A DNA stretch of 64,000 nucleotides from Escherichia coli (GTDB lineage: Bacteria; Pseudomonadota; Gammaproteobacteria; Enterobacterales; Enterobacteriaceae). The DNA is taken from assembly GCF_050920415.1 (NCBI RefSeq), contig NZ_CP169309.1; one strand, 5' to 3'. A model generated the notes under the pieces. It was not told the origin of the DNA. It saw nothing but the letters and a program-made list of their open reading frames with translations, and did not search any database. Positions within the stretch are counted from its first letter, which is position 1; every line of letters starts with the position of its first letter. This document shows, piece after piece, positions 22,750 through 30,600 of this stretch. The position numbers and the translations under genes were made by a program.

Positions 22750-23070
22750 TTAGCGGTTGATGGTTGCTTTTTTCGGGTCATACCATCTCGGCCATTCTTT
22801 CAGGAATGGGAATGAGTCGGGAGCGTGGTTCTTTTTGTACGATTTAAGCAGCCTTAACCGCTCTATCGCACACTCATAAACCTCTTGTTGCCCTGTAGTC
22901 ATCTCGGTCCATGAAAGGTGATCCATTGATAAGACAACGTTTTCAGCTTCTTTTATGAGGGCGTTTTTATTTCTCACCGCAGCAGCATGGCTGACAGAGC
23001 AATCCTGCCATATTCTTAAAAGCCAAATAGCTAAGCAGATAAAAAAAATGGTAGATAGCGATATATACAC
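22750..23070 (-). CDS. Hypothetical single-pass membrane protein (106 aa) in the P22 sieA slot
   Basis: GTG at 23070 with GGAGG 5 nt upstream. N-terminal TM YISLSTIFFICLAIWLLRIW, then a soluble tail ending FLKEWPRWYDPKKATINR. The longer track ORF (to 23286) would overlap the opposite-strand gene and lacks an RBS. Confidence 0.45.
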   Translation of the reverse strand: MYISLSTIFFICLAIWLLRIWQDCSVSHAAAVRNKNALIKEAENVVLSMDHLSWTEMTTGQQEVYECAIERLRLLKSYKKNHAPDSFPFLKEWPRWYDPKKATINR

Positions 23071-23100
23071 ACCAACCTCCTTAGTTTTGAGCAGGATACC

Positions 23101-23466
23101 ATGAAAAAAGTTAACATTGGAAACGTACCAAAGATGCTCGTACCGCTCTTTGAGAGCGGTACAATTGTGTTTTGTAGAGACTTTCCAGAATGGCAACGCC
23201 TGCATCAAAAACTTGGCGTTGACGTGCATGACTCGGACGCCAACGGAGCGTCTCATACAATGAGTAGCGAGAATGGTGTTTTGCATGTGATAGGCGTGTT
23301 CAATGGCAAACTATCTACTATTGCCCATGAGTGCGCTCACATGGCATTCGATATCTGCTCAAGGGTAGGTGTTGATGTTGAACCAGGAAGAGCCAACGAG
23401 ACTTACTGCTACTTAATGAGCAGGCTTGTTGAGTTCTGCGAGCGACATATCAAAAAGCCGGAGTGA
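23101..23466 (+). CDS. Hypothetical 121-aa protein with a minimal zincin signature (HECAH ... E)
   Basis: AGGA upstream of the ATG. HECAH at aa 76-80 (nt 23326-23340). Glu100 lies 20 residues after the second His, which is gluzincin spacing. No named family recognised. Confidence 0.55.
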   Translation: MKKVNIGNVPKMLVPLFESGTIVFCRDFPEWQRLHQKLGVDVHDSDANGASHTMSSENGVLHVIGVFNGKLSTIAHECAHMAFDICSRVGVDVEPGRANETYCYLMSRLVEFCERHIKKPE

Positions 23467-23758: not shown

Positions 23759-24010
23759 TCAGGTGGTTTTTTTGTACAAATCCTTCAGCGTATCAAACAC
23801 CATCTTCTTAACAAGATCTGACTGCTCATCAGCGAGTCGTTCTGCATCGTCACGATATCCAGTCACAGGCGATGGTTTTGATAGAGCATCTTGGACGATT
23901 TGCAACAATTCTGAGTTCATTGATCTACCATTTGACTCTGCTCTGTATTTTAATTTTTCTCTTACTTCCAAAGGCATGCGGAAGTTAAAGTGCGGATCGT
24001 CTCTAGCCAT
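23759..24010 (-). CDS. mnt: Mnt repressor (ribbon-helix-helix)
   Basis: 83 aa MARDDPHFNFRMPLEVREKLKYRAESNGRSMNSELLQIVQDALSKPSPVTGYRDDAERLADEQSDLVKKMVFDTLKDLYKKTT. Nearly identical to the remembered P22 Mnt. Confidence 0.95.
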   Translation of the reverse strand: MARDDPHFNFRMPLEVREKLKYRAESNGRSMNSELLQIVQDALSKPSPVTGYRDDAERLADEQSDLVKKMVFDTLKDLYKKTT

Positions 24011-24033: not shown

Positions 24034-24297
24034 TTAACTTTCGTCTTTATTGTTGCCATACATGCATTTCAACTTCTCAACATCATGTTCAAGATCTATC
24101 AATCGTGATGCTATAGTTGCAAGGTCTAGTGCTTGAATGTGTTTATTTTTTTCGGTCCATGCTTCAAGTGCCGCGACCATCTCAGCATTTAATGAACGAG
24201 AATTAGCCTCAGCCAGTTCAATAAGACGTTCCTTTATCTCTACAGGAAGCCTCAGATTCACTTGAGGGTTTTTGTACTTACGATCAGACATCGGCAC
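24034..24297 (-). CDS. Second Mnt/Arc-family RHH protein (87 aa), first gene of the leftward immI operon
   Basis: N-terminal RHH pattern KNPQVNLRLPVEIKERLIELAEANSRSLNAEMVAALEAW plus a C-terminal helical tail, like the Mnt tetramerisation region. Confidence 0.7.
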   Translation of the reverse strand: MPMSDRKYKNPQVNLRLPVEIKERLIELAEANSRSLNAEMVAALEAWTEKNKHIQALDLATIASRLIDLEHDVEKLKCMYGNNKDES

Positions 24298-24327
24298 ATC
24301 CTGAATAATTTTTTACCACAGGATATG

Positions 24328-24383
24328 TAGGTATCTATTGACTATCAATGCGTACCTAAATACTATGTATGCGTACCACATAC
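24328..24383. promoter_or_regulatory. immI control region: back-to-back divergent promoters inside a 31-bp near-palindrome, plus repeated ATGCGTACC
   Basis: Rightward promoter: TTGACT (24338-43), 17 nt, TACTAT (24361-66). Leftward promoter: TTGATA, 17 nt, TATCCT. Palindrome TAGGTAtctATTGAcTaTCAATgcgTACCTA centred at 24343 (11/15 arm matches). ATGCGTACC occurs at 24348-56 and 24369-77. GTATG..CATAC occurs at 24367-83. Confidence 0.5.
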
Positions 24384-24396
24384 AACGGAGGATGCA

Positions 24397-24537
24397 ATGA
24401 AGGTAAAAACACTGCGTATGCCAGAGAAGTTAGAAAAAATCCTTGAAGAGAAAGCAAAGGAAGAGTGTCGCTCATTTAGCGCAGAAGTAATTAAACGGGT
24501 GATGGACAGCCTGAAGAGAGATGGGGTGGCGATATGA
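24397..24537 (+). CDS. Arc-like RHH repressor (46 aa)
   Basis: ACGGAGG upstream. MKVKTLRMPEKLEKILEEKAKEECRSFSAEVIKRVMDSLKRDGVAI follows the Arc pattern (beta strand, then two helices; compare P22 Arc ...NGRSVNSEIYQRVMESFKKEG). Below the ORF-track cutoff. Confidence 0.65.
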   Translation: MKVKTLRMPEKLEKILEEKAKEECRSFSAEVIKRVMDSLKRDGVAI

Positions 24538-24716
24538 ATAAAGAAGATGGCTTTAAGTGCTCCTTCTGCTGAAAGCCTCAGCATGAATGTGCAATGTTGA
24601 TTCGCGCTAAAGCAGAGATATTTATCTGTAATGGTTGTGTATCTCTTTGCGTTGAAGCGATGGGGAAAGAGTTAAATTCTAGAAAAACAATGTTAGATGT
24701 GAGCATAAAACAGTGA
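24534..24716 (+). pseudogene. ClpX-type C4 zinc-ribbon ORF interrupted by an in-frame TGA at codon 13
   Basis: ATGA overlap with the Arc-like gene. MNKEDGFKCSFC*KPQHECAMLIRAKAEIFICNGCVSLCVEAMGKELNSRKTMLDVSIKQ*. The pattern CSFC-x-K...LI....ICxxCVxxC matches the ClpX N-terminal zinc-binding domain (CSFCGK...). TGA at 24570-24572 sits where Gly (GGA) is expected. Confidence 0.55.
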
Positions 24717-24767
24717 AGCCCCAACTGCGGTAACAGTCAGGGCTTCGGTATCAACAAAACTTACGAG
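24705..24767 (-). ncRNA. Candidate sar-like antisense RNA covering the ant ribosome-binding site
   Basis: Minus-strand TTGACT (24800-24795), 15 nt, TATCCA-like TATCAA (24779-24774). Minus-strand hairpin GAAGCCC-ca-ACTG-cggtaa-CAGT-ca-GGGCTTC (24715-24746) followed by ACTGTTTTA. The transcript would be antisense to GAGG-ATG of ant. Proposed by analogy to P22 sar. Confidence 0.3.
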
Positions 24768-25439
24768 GTATTATTGATATGTCAAGCTTAGCAAAGTCAA
24801 CTGTAAATTGCACTAATAGCATCATCATTTCTGACGTCAAGATTCATATGGATTCAGAGGGTCGTTACTCGCTTAATGACCTTCATGTAGCGTCTGGAAA
24901 GGAGGAAAAACATCAGCCAGCTTTCTTCATGCGTAGAAATGAAACTATTGAATTGATTAATGAAATTTTTAATTCTGCGGATATGCAGAATAAGAATCCC
25001 GTCATTTCTAAGAAAGGTAGATATGGTGGAACATACGTGTGCAAGGAGCTTGTTTACTCCTACGCCATGTGGATTAGCGCAGCATTTGCGCTGAAGGTTA
25101 TCCGCGCATATGACGCAATGGTTACTGCCACACAAGAGAGGAAGGCTATTGGCGGTAAAACTTCAGTAGCTGAACGCACGCCGCTACGCGATGCAGTAAA
25201 CATGCTGGTAGGAAAGAAAGGACTTCGCTATGACGATGCATACAATATGGTTCATCAGCGTTTTGGTATTGACAGCATTGATGAACTTTCAATTGAACAA
25301 ATCCCGCTGGCCGTAGAGTACATCCACAGGGTAGTGCTTGAAGGTGAGTAGACTGGCCCCCTGAATCTCCAGACAACCAGTATCACTTAAATAAGTGATA
25401 GTCTTAATACTAGTTTTTAGACTAGTCATTGGAGAACAG

Positions 25440-25805
25440 ATGATTGATGTCTTAGGGCCGGAGAAACGCAGACGGCGTACCACACAGGAAAAGATCGCAA
25501 TTGTTCAGCAGAGCTTTGAACCGGGGATGACGGTCTCCCTCGTTGCCCGGCAACATGGTGTAGCAGCCAGCCAGTTATTTCTCTGGCGTAAGCAATACCA
25601 GGAAGGAAGTCTTACTGCTGTCGCCGCCGGAGAACAGGTTGTTCCTGCCTCTGAACTTGCTGCCGCCATGAAGCAGATTAAAGAACTCCAGCGCCTGCTC
25701 GGCAAGAAAACGATGGAAAATGAACTCCTCAAAGAAGCCGTTGAATATGGACGGGCAAAAAAGTGGATAGCGCACGCGCCCTTATTGCCCGGGGATGGGG
25801 AGTAA
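25440..25805 (+). CDS. insC: IS2 OrfA (InsC)
   Basis: 121 aa [56 protein letters not shown].... Confidence 0.95.
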
Positions 25806-26668
25806 GCTTAGTCAGCCGTTGTCTCCGGGTGTCGCGTGCGCAGTTGCACGTCATTCTCAGACGAACCGATGACTGGATGGATGGCCGCCGCAGTCGTCAC
25901 ACTGATGATACGGATGTGCTTCTCCGTATACACCATGTTATCGGAGAGCTGCCCACGTATGGTTATCGTCGGGTATGGGCGCTGCTTCGCAGACAGGCAG
26001 AACTTGATGGTATGCCTGCGATCAATGCCAAACGTGTTTACCGGATCATGCGCCAGAATGCGCTGTTGCTTGAGCGAAAACCTGCTGTACCGCCATCGAA
26101 ACGGGCACATACAGGCAGAGTGGCCGTGAAAGAAAGCAATCAGCGATGGTGCTCTGACGGGTTCGAGTTCTGCTGTGATAACGGAGAGAGACTGCGTGTC
26201 ACGTTCGCGCTGGACTGCTGTGATCGTGAGGCACTGCACTGGGCGGTGACTACTGGCGGCTTCAACAGTGAAACAGTACAGGACGTCATGCTGGGAGCGG
26301 TGGAACGCCGCTTCGGCGACGATCTTCCGTCGTCTCCAGTGGAGTGGCTGACGGATAATGGTTCATGCTACCGGGCTAATGAAACACGCCAGTTCGCCCG
26401 GATGTTGGGACTTGAACCGAAGAACACGGCGGTGCGGAGTCCGGAGAGTAACGGAATAGCAGAGAGCTTCGTGAAAACGATAAAGCGTGACTACATCAGT
26501 ATCATGCCCAAACCAGACGGGTTAACGGCAGCAAAGAACCTTGCAGAGGCGTTCGAGCATTATAACGAATGGCATCCGCATAGTGCGCTGGGTTATCGCT
26601 CGCCACGGGAATATCTGCGGCAGCGGGCTTGTAATGGGTTAAGTGATAACAGATGTCTGGAAATATAG
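25763..26668 (+). CDS. insD: IS2 OrfB (InsD); transposase made as an OrfAB fusion by -1 frameshifting
   Basis: 301-aa DDE ORF. Slippery A6G at 25757-25763 lies in the OrfA/OrfB overlap. Confidence 0.95.
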
Positions 26669-27023
26669 GGGCAAATCCAGTGAGTTCATTGGCAAACAAG
26701 AGAAGAAAACCAACGAGCTTTCTGCAAAAGAAGCAAACAGCCTTGTATGGTTATGGGATTATGCCAACCGCTCACAGGCATTATTCCGCGAATTGTATCC
26801 GGCATTAAAACAAATTCAATCGAACTATTCCGGCAGATGTCATGACTGCGGTTATGAGTTCTCCCGTATTATCGATATAGCGAGAGACGTTTTAATTAAT
26901 CACACACGAGATGTTGATATCAATGAGCCAGACGGACCAACGAATCTTTCCGCATGGATGAGACTTAAGAATAAAGAATTACCTCCTTCAGTACATAATT
27001 ACTGACAGATAACCAACGCAACG

Positions 27024-27105: not shown

Positions 27106-29063
27106 ATGACAGACATTACAGCCAATGTTGTAGTGAGCATGCCTTCGCAACTCTTTACTATGGCCCGCTCTTTTAAAGCCGTAGCTAATGGTAAAATTTA
27201 TATCGGTAAAATTGACACTGACCCGGTAAATCCTGAAAACCAGATTCAGGTTTATGTAGAGAACGAAGACGGCTCTCACGTTCCTGTTTCGCAACCAATC
27301 ATCATTAACGCTGCTGGATATCCGGTATATAACGGACAGATTGCCAAATTCGTAACTGTGCAAGGCCATTCTATGGCTGTATATGATGCGTATGGTGCAC
27401 AGCAGTTCTATTTTCCTAATGTGCTGAAGTATGACCCTGATCAGTTTAAGCAGCAGTTAGAAAGCGATGCTGATGGAATGGGAGATGCATTAGTTACAGT
27501 TAAACAACCGTACACTGGTGCTACTTCTATTTCACAGCACATTAAAAATTCACAGGCTATAAGTGTTATTGATTTTGGCGCTACAATTGACGGAACGCTT
27601 CACCCTTTAAGCGAGATATTTTCAACACTATCAGCCGCTCAGATGGTATATCCATTTGTTTCATCTCTATCTCAATCTGTTGATTATGCTGCGCTTCAGT
27701 CCGCATGTAACACGGGAAAAACAGTGCTTATTCCAAAGGGAACTGGTTACTATAATTCAACTATTTTTCTGAAAAACTCCGTCAGGATTGTTGGAGAGGG
27801 AACTGATACAATAAATAGAGCGCAATCATTTATGTCTATTGTTGGTAATATTTCAGCCTTTGCTTTAGATCAAGGTGATTCACTATCGACAAAAATGATT
27901 CAGATTTTTATTGATGGTCTTTATATTTTCTATGATCCAGGAACCACACCAACGAATCCTGAAGATGATGGTGGGAAAATTGCATTTAATTTCTACTCGA
28001 CAATTCCAAATTCAACAAGCTTGGAAATGTCTGAAATTAAAAACTGTACAGTTCATGGTGCATGGTCATGCTTTAATGATCAGACTGGCACATACTTGAC
28101 AAAACTTACGAATGTGTGGGCCAGAAACTGCCATAATGGTTTTACAAAAGGAACTGGCACTACCATTCTGATGGAAAGATGTTATACATCTGGATGTATA
28201 TCACCATATCAGTTTGGTTCTGTCTTTGCAGCTACAATGATTAACTGTGCCATGGATGGATCAAATATTTCGTTAAACGCAGGTTCGCTTGGTGGGGCTG
28301 GCGTTCATGTTCTTAACACACATAGTTTTAACATTATTGGTTTTGATGCGGAGGGTAACACCATCTCTACAGATGGTTATGGAGAGGCAGCACTATTCCA
28401 TTTCGAAAATAGTAGTGGTGGCATTTCTGGCCTGACTGCACATCAGAACAGCATGCGAAGTGTTGCGCCAAGTGATGCTGGTGTAGTTTCCTACATCAGG
28501 GCGTCAGGTAGCAGCGATGTAAAATTGAGTCATCAGAAGATGATTTATCTGACACCAACACAGTTGCATATACTGGGTCTGGGTATCCCATCATGCTACA
28601 TGCAACTGACACAGCTAAAATAAGCGTCTTTAATAGCAGATTCAGGGCGACTACCACTGGTACCCCTGTCTTAAGTACGCTAAGTACTGGTGATGTATCA
28701 TGGTATGACTGCCCTAAAAAAACAGGACTTATCGTAGATGGTTATTCACAAATAACATCTAAGGAAGGATTGCAAACATCATGCTTCTATACCAGTAAAG
28801 GCTCTACTGCTGTTGCTGAAAATACTCCGACAACACTTTTCTCTCTACCAGATTCGCAAGGTACTTACATTATTAGCGTATGGGGGGCTGGAAGCGGAGA
28901 AAATTACGCATCTACACAACTGGCAATGTATGATGGAGATAAGCTAATTCTTGTTGCGTTAAAAATAGCAGCATTTCTTAGTTTTTCAGCAACAGGGAGA
29001 ATTGTAACCATTACAAGCCAGGGCACAGGCACTTTTAATTGGACCTACACAAAAATAGGTTAA
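27106..29063 (+). pseudogene. gp9: Tailspike (P22 gp9 family head-binding domain plus a different receptor-binding body), split by a 1-nt frameshift
   Basis: N-terminus [59 protein letters not shown]...NVLKYDPDQ is the conserved P22-type particle-binding domain. Frame 1 stops at 28623. Frame 3 is open from 28512 to 29063. The total span of 1958 nt is 3n+2. Confidence 0.8.
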
Positions 29064-29206: not shown

Positions 29207-30364
29207 TCACTCCACCTTTTCATCAATCCAATCCGCCCACCACTGCATCATTTCTCTGCGCTTATCGAGATACTGAGCATGGTTGTAAATTCCGCGCACA
29301 GATCCGCCGTTGGCATGTGCCAGTTGCACTTCAATAGCATCAGCAGGCCATTCGTGCTCGTTCATAATCGTGCTGAATTCATGCCTGAATCCGTGACCGC
29401 TTTCCAGACCTTCATAGCCGATTTGTTTGATCACAAGCAGTACCGCGTTCTCGCAGATTGGCTTCTTCTTATCGTTGCGCCCGGCAAAAACAAACTCTGA
29501 TACTGGTTTGGTGATTGAGCTTAGCGTAGTGAGAAGTTCAACCACCTGGTCCGACATCGGGACAACATGAATCTTGCGTCCCTTCATCACACTGGCGTCG
29601 ATAGTGATAATCCTGTTTTCAAAATCGACGTTCTTCCATTGCATGGAACGAAGCTCTTTCGTTCTTAGGGCTGTGTAGCGTAAAACTTTGGTCGCAATGA
29701 GCGATACGATACTTCCTGAAAATGTTGCCAGTGCTTTGTTGAATGCAGGGATCTGGTCTGCAGGAAGAAACGGGAAGTTCTTCTTGCGGTATCCCTTCAT
29801 GGCGTCAGCAAGGTCAGGTGCCGGGTTATATTTAGCCCTTCCGGTGACAATAGCGTAACGGAAAACCTCGCCGCATCTTCTGCGTGCTTTGTTGGCTCGC
29901 TCCATTGCACCGCGATCTTCAAATCTGCGGATTACTTCCAGAAGTTGCATCGGCTCAATATCCTGAATTTCAAGGCTGCCGATGATAGGTAAAATGTCGT
30001 CATCAAACATTTTGGCAAGTTCAGTTGCATAGCCTACTGACCAGACTTGCTTCTTGTGCTCGTACCATTCCTTGTAAATCGCACTAAAGGAATTGTTGTT
30101 AGACGAAGCCTTTTTCGCCTTTACCGGATCGATACCAACCGAGATGTCTTTCCTCGCAGTCCATGCTTTATCCCTTGCCTCCTGCAAAGTCATAAGCGGA
30201 TATTTTCCGACGGTCAGGATTTTCTCCTTACCGTCAATCTTGTAGCGAAGCTGCCATACCTTTTTCCCTGACACAGGGACATAAAGGTACAGGCCATTAC
30301 CATCGAGAAGGCGGTATGGTTTTTCTTTCGGCTTTGCTGCTTCAATCTGCTTAACGGTGAGCAT
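29207..30364 (-). CDS. int: Tyrosine integrase, argW-specific (IntS/Sf6 Int type)
   Basis: 385 aa from MLTVKQIEAAKPKEKPYRLLDGNGLYLYVPVSGKKVWQLRYK.... Nearly identical to the remembered K-12 IntS. C-terminal catalytic HGFRH...Y region is present. Confidence 0.95.
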   Translation of the reverse strand: MLTVKQIEAAKPKEKPYRLLDGNGLYLYVPVSGKKVWQLRYKIDGKEKILTVGKYPLMTLQEARDKAWTARKDISVGIDPVKAKKASSNNNSFSAIYKEWYEHKKQVWSVGYATELAKMFDDDILPIIGSLEIQDIEPMQLLEVIRRFEDRGAMERANKARRRCGEVFRYAIVTGRAKYNPAPDLADAMKGYRKKNFPFLPADQIPAFNKALATFSGSIVSLIATKVLRYTALRTKELRSMQWKNVDFENRIITIDASVMKGRKIHVVPMSDQVVELLTTLSSITKPVSEFVFAGRNDKKKPICENAVLLVIKQIGYEGLESGHGFRHEFSTIMNEHEWPADAIEVQLAHANGGSVRGIYNHAQYLDKRREMMQWWADWIDEKVE

Positions 30365-30525
30365 GGGTAAAAATCCGGTGGGTAAAATTATTTTATCCAC
30401 TTTTTACCCGTCATGGTGTGCGGCTGTCAACGATCTGACGCGAACCATGACGAACTGTGAATCTACGGAAGGCTTGATATTCAGGGGATTTTGCGGACTG
30501 GTACGGATGGGAGCGAACTGATAAA

Positions 30526-30600
30526 TGGTGTCCCCTGCAGGAATCGAACCTGCAATTAGCCCTTAGGAGGGGCTCGTTATATCCATTTAACTAAGAGGAC
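30526..30600 (-). tRNA. argW: tRNA-Arg (anticodon CCU)
   Basis: The reverse complement reads GTCCTCTTAGTTAAATGGATATAACGAGCCCCTCCTAAGGGCTAATTGCAGGTTCGATTCCTGCAGGGGACACCA. 75 nt, cloverleaf, CCT anticodon, encoded CCA. Confidence 0.95.

Follow-up and report, generated by a model that had tools for sequence, protein, structure and literature searches.

Why should an open reading frame (ORF) that carries the zinc-binding domain of ClpX lie between arc and ant in the antirepressor operon of a P22-like prophage, and why is it interrupted by a stop codon? The question is raised by a stretch of 64,000 nucleotides of Escherichia coli DNA (RefSeq assembly GCF_050920415.1, contig NZ_CP169309.1), referred to here as the window, in which positions 24534-24716 of the plus strand hold 60 codons and a natural stop codon and are broken by a TGA at codon 13. 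An earlier note on this DNA had offered two options for the TGA, a very recent nonsense mutation or a leaky or recoded stop, and had suggested that a mimic of the ClpX domain could interfere with the recognition of adaptors or substrates by ClpXP. Is the domain really of the ClpX type? Is the stop codon an accident or a working part of the gene? Where do intact copies occur, and what would they do? In the best explanation, which we consider very probable, the window copy is an allele put out of action by a nonsense mutation (GGA to TGA, Gly13 to stop); the gene, here called the finger gene, is a small accessory of P22-like phages and encodes a free-standing ClpX-type C4 zinc-binding domain; the mutation arose once in a single prophage lineage, and the prophage is decaying. 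The Pfam family PF06689, short phage proteins carrying its domain and a RefSeq name based on the domain are already known; the inactivated allele in the window is new.

The domain was identified by profile and sequence comparison. With Gly placed at codon 13 of the conceptual translation, the finger protein matches PF06689 (zf-C4_ClpX) with 43.9 bits (E 2.2e-11), above the gathering cutoff of 27 bits. In a phmmer search of PDB sequences, N-domains of ClpX are the sole matches (1OVX, E 1.7e-7; 2DS5), with all four cysteines aligned, and BLASTP against E. coli ClpX gives 19 identities in 39 positions (49%) over the domain core. Cys9, Cys12, Cys32 and Cys35 of the finger protein align with Cys14, Cys17, Cys36 and Cys39 of ClpX, and the stop codon falls on the Gly of CSFCGK. 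The ClpX-type zinc ribbon that the earlier note had read from the letters is thus confirmed. In the six frames of the window there are seven instances of a simple CxxC...CxxC pattern interrupted by no more than one stop, so that the pattern is weak evidence in itself and the profile match carries the weight. From these comparisons, the resemblance to ClpX is judged not to be a matter of chance. The finger protein shares with ClpX's zinc-binding domain (ZBD; PDB 1OVX and 2DS5-2DS8; PF06689) the C4 signature CSFCGK-QHE-LI-IC..CV.LC, and Phe16 of the ClpX docking pocket is kept as Phe11. In contrast to ClpX, the phage protein is free-standing, has 60 amino acids and no AAA+ ATPase module, contains one additional residue in the loop between the knuckles and has Ala42 where ClpX has Ile46 (I46); in the window copy, the Gly after the second Cys is replaced by the stop codon. 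The possibility that the ORF represents the ClpX unfoldase proper was rejected, as the ORF has only 60 codons and reaches 32.9 bits with NCBIfam NF003745 (cutoff 359) and 28.6 bits with TIGR00382 (cutoff 370.75).

What can still be made from the window copy? The plus-strand frame reads MNKEDGFKCSFC, a stop codon and then KPQHECAMLIRAKAEIFICNGCVSLCVEAMGKELNSRKTMLDVSIKQ up to the natural stop, with KPQHEC...ICNGCVSLC...KQ as landmarks of the second part. The premature TGA at 24570-24572, placed by DNA alignment, a per-codon table and the ClpX alignments, is the only internal stop, and the 47 codons after it are open, just as had been noticed at the outset. The 12 codons in front of it (24534-24569) are still translatable. 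Their ATG at 24534 shares the sequence ATGA with the stop codon of the 46-amino-acid Arc-family ORF at 24397-24537, which upholds the coupling to arc claimed before, and it is preceded by a Shine-Dalgarno sequence (AUGGGGUGG, -9.2 kcal/mol, spacing 4 nucleotides) similar in strength to that of the arc start (-9.5). Ribosomes in the window would halt after these 12 codons, and no zinc-binding domain would be produced. The arrangement CxxC-(18-20)-CxxC within one polypeptide, found in intact alleles, is absent from the window, where the TGA at codon 13 parts the two Cys pairs. Neither translatable piece passes the PF06689 cutoff: the N-terminal peptide of 12 amino acids is too short, and the 40-codon remnant from Met21 (24594-24716, plus strand), which lacks the first CxxC, reaches only 20.3 bits (E 5e-4).

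Could ribosomes reinitiate at Met21 (24594) and make a C-terminal fragment of 40 amino acids with a function of its own? The start lies just 21 nucleotides past the stop, and gene callers have annotated the ORF in other assemblies as a hypothetical protein of 40 amino acids (P0014), which is found in five contigs. However, the Met21 codon has no ribosome-binding site, its Shine-Dalgarno pairing amounting to -1.4 kcal/mol against -9.2 at the true start, and the fragment stays below the Pfam cutoff. Since it lacks the first CxxC, the four-Cys zinc site cannot form. Reinitiation was rejected for want of a Shine-Dalgarno match, and we regard it as very improbable.

The decisive evidence on the stop codon comes from intact homologues, the search for which the earlier note had named among the checks to be made. 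Such homologues, 60 amino acids in length, are present in the same arc-X-sar-ant slot of P22-like prophages of E. coli, Shigella and Salmonella, and they read GGA at codon 13 (loci L001-L003 and L018-L022). The main intact allele (P0002; WP_047668240.1, named "ClpX C4-type zinc finger protein" in RefSeq) is found in 469 contigs, and the 40-amino-acid product that marks the TGA allele in five. The window copy is the same gene in the same slot and agrees with WP_047668240.1 at 180 of 183 nucleotides. It differs from it by GGA to TGA (G13*), AGT to AAT (S33N) and AAC to AGC (N57S), and it adjoins another Arc type, of 46 amino acids, with a junction that lies within the 3′ end of arc. Intact homologues in the same slot have GGA at codon 13, and the stop is thus a plain G-to-T nonsense mutation; of the two options offered at the outset, this one stands.

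Is the difference, which amounts to a single base, perhaps an error of sequencing or assembly? Assemblies GCA_000194575.2, GCA_021088925.1 and IMG/VR UViG_2534682161, which are independent, have the same 183-nucleotide allele, and the 40-amino-acid product occurs in five contigs, which rules out a sequencing error for practical purposes. At least three assemblies beyond the window carry the TGA allele, with identity at 183 of 183 nucleotides in E. coli STEC_7v (L016), GCA_021088925.1 (L017) and an IMG/VR contig (L023). The flanks in this lineage are 99-99.96% identical to those of the window, and between 23880 and 25349 a single poly-T indel is the only difference. In all three, ant is intact (296 amino acids) and the insertion sequence (IS) that splits it in the window is absent, from which it follows that the nonsense mutation is older than the IS insertion. 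With no further decay of the ORF and nearly identical flanks, the mutation is young. The description "very recent" therefore holds as regards youth, but the allele is shared by at least three other assemblies and predates the IS in ant.

The second option was a recoded TGA: with selenocysteine inserted at it, or with programmed readthrough of high efficiency, the full-length zinc-finger protein would still be made. The 47 codons past the stop remain open without a frameshift, and the TGA allele persists in several assemblies beside an intact ant. An open downstream frame is, however, what is expected of a young mutation, the flanks being essentially identical among carriers, and the TGA occurs in a single lineage of closely related prophages only. 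Codon 13 encodes Gly in homologues and in ClpX, never Cys or selenocysteine (one allele has Glu), and Trp at this Gly of the zinc knuckle would probably destabilize the fold. As a criterion we used the position of the selenocysteine insertion sequence (SECIS) in E. coli, a stem-loop about 11 nucleotides 3′ of the UGA. In the minimum-free-energy fold of 24560-24640 the UGA itself lies within a small local hairpin, no SECIS-like stem-loop occurs about 11 nucleotides 3′ of it or in the 15 nucleotides past the local hairpin, and the fold is no better than those of shuffled sequences (z -0.69). Selenoprotein synthesis and programmed recoding of the UGA were rejected on the absence of a SECIS-like element and of Cys or selenocysteine in the homologues, and there is very little chance that they operate here.

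How widely is the intact gene distributed? It is present in nine of 5,426 complete E. coli genomes, and all nine copies are intact. A search with the intact protein returned its own cluster only, and among 1.84 billion representatives no relative with more than 50% identity lies beyond it. The DNA of the gene is nearly identical between differing prophage backgrounds, and the 60-amino-acid form found in immI is an isolated and very young cluster. A scan of species-representative genomes gave no copy, only distant ClpX-finger relatives, a metagenome scan in which codon 13 was left free gave no match, and a scan of viral contigs gave only the same six contigs as were already known. In the literature searched there was nothing relevant on a phage ClpX-ZBD protein, on zf-C4_ClpX or on a ClpX decoy. 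The 12 loci read all show an ATGA overlap of the gene with arc, a stop codon that adjoins the sar hairpin at a constant offset, and ant as the next gene. The N-terminal parts of these ant genes belong to at least four unrelated types and arc is the constant neighbour, which indicates that the finger gene travels with arc and not with ant.

A few alleles depart from the intact form. G13E, with GAA at the very codon that bears the stop in the window, is found in 16 contigs, including Shigella flexneri, and C9Y, in which a zinc ligand is lost, in three; both (alleles P0004 and P0005) are probably damaging as judged from their sequences. A second truncated call of 40 amino acids (P0018) comes from E. 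coli 3-105-05_S3_C1, and the isolate 3-105-05_S3_C2, of nearly the same name, has an intact G34S allele. Was the loss of the gene selected rather than neutral, either by being of benefit to the lysogen or through a polar effect of the premature stop on ant? Codon 13 has been hit twice independently, and C9Y has lost a zinc-ligand Cys. About 205 nucleotides of untranslated mRNA now lie 5′ of ant. In the window lineage ant was itself later broken by the IS, as would fit a resident prophage under pressure to shut off its antirepressor operon. On the other hand, damaging variants are rare beside the intact allele with its 469 contigs, the variants are scattered star-like, each by a single substitution, in the way that mutation alone predicts, and polarity on ant is speculation. 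We therefore consider selection for the knockout unlikely, though less so than recoding or reinitiation.

The window copy, a nonsense allele in our preferred explanation, lies in surroundings with the make-up of a P22-type immI region, or ant moron: Arc and Mnt domains, a pair of divergent promoter-like sites at 24320-24366, sar, and an ant with KilA-N and P22_AR_C domains. The immI region of P22, with mnt, arc, sar and ant, was reportedly described by Sauer et al. in 1983. The window has mnt, arc, the sar RNA and ant in the canonical order and orientation. P22, in contrast, has no gene between arc and sar, where the window has the finger gene, and the window has an extra Arc-family gene beside mnt. 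The mnt-like repressor gene (23759-24010, minus strand) encodes Arc and Repressor_Mnt domains (98.1 and 63.6 bits in Pfam), and the second Arc-family gene (24034-24297, minus strand; 87 amino acids; Pfam Arc, 40 bits) is situated between mnt and the pair of divergent promoters. Within this second gene, at 24146, the length of a poly-T tract varies, one T fewer in L016 and L023 leading to a gene call of 54 amino acids. A P_ant-like promoter (TTGACT-17-TACTAT, 24338-24366, plus strand) was found by consensus scan, its probable identity being suggested by the layout of P22 immI, and it is faced by a promoter-like site on the minus strand (24348-24320) seen in the consensus scan only. The arc-like gene (24397-24537, plus strand; 46 amino acids; PF03869, 35 bits) is the first of the ant operon and is 95.5% identical to the corresponding region of CUS-3. 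The finger gene overlaps arc by ATGA and precedes sar and ant, so that its transcription would start at P_ant and its translation would be coupled to that of arc.

Downstream of the finger gene, the sar antisense RNA gene occupies 24712-24777 on the minus strand (Rfam RF00262, 62.8 bits, cutoff 43). Its terminator hairpin, placed at 24715-24746 by a terminator scan, starts within the natural stop codon of the finger gene, and the hairpin region at 24714-24749 is 100% identical to P22. In agreement with the earlier statement that P22 immI holds no such gene, P22 records match just this hairpin of 36 nucleotides (query 415-450) and not the finger ORF. Among the sequenced phages of INPHARED, P22 included, the finger gene is absent, and only arc (CUS-3) or the start of sar and ant (P22, Emek) match. 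The immI or ant-moron region is known to be highly variable and mosaic (Villafane et al., 2008, PMC2629481; PMC8022706); these papers, on epsilon34 and phage L, describe the variable ant moron and not the finger gene.

How did the finger gene come to lie at this place? In E. coli QML220601 (L004, 2655-2876) the slot between arc and sar is filled by an unrelated gene of 73 amino acids (phrog_11805), which marks the slot as a mosaic insertion point. This gene, like the finger gene, overlaps arc by ATGA and ends in ...KQ before its stop, from which it follows that the slot swaps cassettes at fixed junctions; the sar hairpin is the marker of its 3′ boundary. The intact finger genes all follow an Arc type of 50 amino acids (MEKEISKILVRMPQ...), whereas the TGA lineage follows the type of 46 amino acids (MKVKTLRMPEK...), which is also that of CUS-3 and QML220601. 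The switch between the two types lies within the last 60 nucleotides or so of arc (window 24397-24537 compared with L001 2432-2584), and the TGA lineage is thus recombinant.

Other parts of the prophage, which is of the Sf6/HK620/CUS-3 type, are also damaged. An IS3-family (IS2-like) element of 1331 bp at 25349-26679 (plus strand), recognized from its junctions, inverted repeats and HTH_Tnp_1 and rve domains, has imperfect terminal inverted repeats of 33 nucleotides and a 5-bp target duplication (GTGAG). It divides ant into a 5′ part with the KilA-N domain (24779-25351, plus strand; 190 amino acids as truncated by the IS; 71.1 bits in Pfam) and a 3′ part with P22_AR_C (26680-27005, plus strand; PF10548, 102.1 bits on the ORF 26643-27005); a look-up of the exact truncated Ant of 190 amino acids found no protein record. 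Compared with L016 and L017, the tailspike gene has a deletion of 1 bp near 28519, which splits it into the ORFs 27106-28623 and 28593-29063, that is, a head-binding part of 505 amino acids and a remainder of 156. The deletion is either a real frameshift, in which case the prophage is defective, or an assembly error. The finger pseudogene fits a resident prophage that is accumulating damage.

Several further features of the locus were recorded. Past the tailspike deletion, 19 substitutions relative to L016 are clustered at 28555-28845. The segment 23088-23822 has been replaced relative to L016, L017 and L023 and holds the ORF 23101-23466 (phrog_1365) and the 5′ part of 22750-23286 (minus strand, phrog_10450); both families have no assigned function, and neither ORF has a PADLOC match. 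At 23826-23879, in the 3′ end of mnt, 18 substitutions mark the recombination edge. An intS-like integrase gene (29207-30400, minus strand) adjoins tRNA-Arg(CCT) (30526-30600), beyond which lie yfdC, mlaA and fadL; this is the argW integration site. Over the host flank, the best-matching complete E. coli genomes reach only about 98.5-98.8% identity.

What may the intact protein do? The interference with ClpXP proposed in the earlier note could hold for intact alleles only, not for the window copy. Our preferred mechanism, put forward tentatively, is that intact alleles act as a decoy of the ClpX N-domain. When P_ant fires, the intact free domain would be made along with Arc and Ant. It might then attach to docking motifs on ZBD-dependent adaptors or substrates, such as those of the SspB, RssB or lambda O type, or alternatively pair with the N-domains of ClpX; in either mode, that branch of ClpXP proteolysis would be transiently dampened. 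Zinc binding and dimerization are predicted for the intact protein, as is any effect on ClpXP. The isolated ZBD of ClpX, supplied in trans, inhibits sigma-S breakdown mediated by RssB in vitro (PMC7226468), and it is this inhibition of adaptor-dependent degradation that makes a decoy role plausible. A hydrophobic pocket of ClpX that includes F16 and I46 is where lambda O, SspB, RssB and trigger factor all dock, and the N-domain dimerizes (PMC7804408). The intact form may thus be a phage decoy, produced in a burst from P_ant, that titrates ZBD adaptors or substrates or caps ClpX N-domains, and in the course of infection or induction it could shield a phage protein or stop a host response that depends on ClpXP; this is one possible role, and we put it at no more than about one chance in three.

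A somewhat less probable view makes the intact protein unconnected with ClpXP: the zinc ribbon would have been reused within the immI circuit as a small module that binds proteins or nucleic acids, with Arc or Ant as conceivable partners. The finger gene is constantly paired and translationally coupled with the 50-amino-acid Arc type, beside ant genes of four unrelated N-termini, and ClpX-type fingers occur in many architectures other than ClpX (2,355 representatives, many of them short or with multiple repeats), several PHROG families with the domain having no assigned function. The replacement of I46 in the docking pocket points in the same direction. Against this view, the core is unusually near that of E. 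coli ClpX (CSFCGK.QHE..LI....IC..CV.LC, with the 49% identity given above), the Phe of the docking pocket included, and the ClpX ZBD in free form is a known competitor for adaptors (PMC7226468). Among the PADLOC-DB defence models, no family matches the finger protein at E <= 0.01, and by sequence it is like no known defence or anti-defence protein.

Some observations count against the picture of a ClpX-type domain that acts as a decoy when intact and is dead in the window. Of the two pocket residues, I46 is not conserved, the phage protein having Ala. The 13 DNA copies of the finger gene show no synonymous difference in the per-codon table, which makes a ratio of nonsynonymous to synonymous substitution rates (dN/dS) impossible to obtain and purifying selection on the cassette impossible to demonstrate, and the damaging alleles G13E and C9Y indicate that the gene may be only weakly constrained in lysogens. 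A single-sequence AlphaFold2 model of the intact protein has a mean predicted local distance difference test score (pLDDT) of 54.1, too poor to judge the fold. Finally, UGA codons are read through at a basal level of about 0.1-1%; nothing points to a raised level at this TGA, and it is very improbable that the TGA allele still gives some active protein in this way.

Comparison with other phage proteins places the gene further. Other short ClpX-finger proteins of phages (phrog_5259, phrog_6797, phrog_12435 and a protein of phage P88) are likewise small and built on a ClpX-type C4 finger, but they have at most about 45% identity to the immI form, other lengths and other genome positions. The P88 protein, encoded in the early or replication region of this P2-like E. 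coli phage (KP063541.1, 1824-2156), has 110 amino acids and bears its ClpX-type finger at the C-terminal end; its annotation as a "carboxylate-amine ligase" is apparently wrong, as the record's own note says ClpX. As its existence shows, free ClpX fingers turn up repeatedly among temperate coliphages that are unrelated. The T4 protein PinA is an inhibitor of Lon, and lambda RexB has been reported to inhibit degradation by the ClpP family. The likeness of the finger gene to these is one of functional analogy only, a phage protein modulating an AAA+ protease of the host, as proposed here; there is no sequence relationship, and the proposed mimicry of a docking domain would be another mechanism.

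By itself, the feature in the window is an ordinary pseudogene, and its value is as a pointer to a rare phage gene of 60 amino acids in an antirepressor operon. A phage gene that is about 50% identical, in the domain core, to the docking domain of the host ClpX is a candidate viral modulator of ClpXP that can be tested cheaply, and the natural TGA, G13E and C9Y alleles are ready loss-of-function controls. If the decoy role holds true, mimicry of a protease's own recognition domain would, with the intact protein, be shown for a phage factor for the first time.

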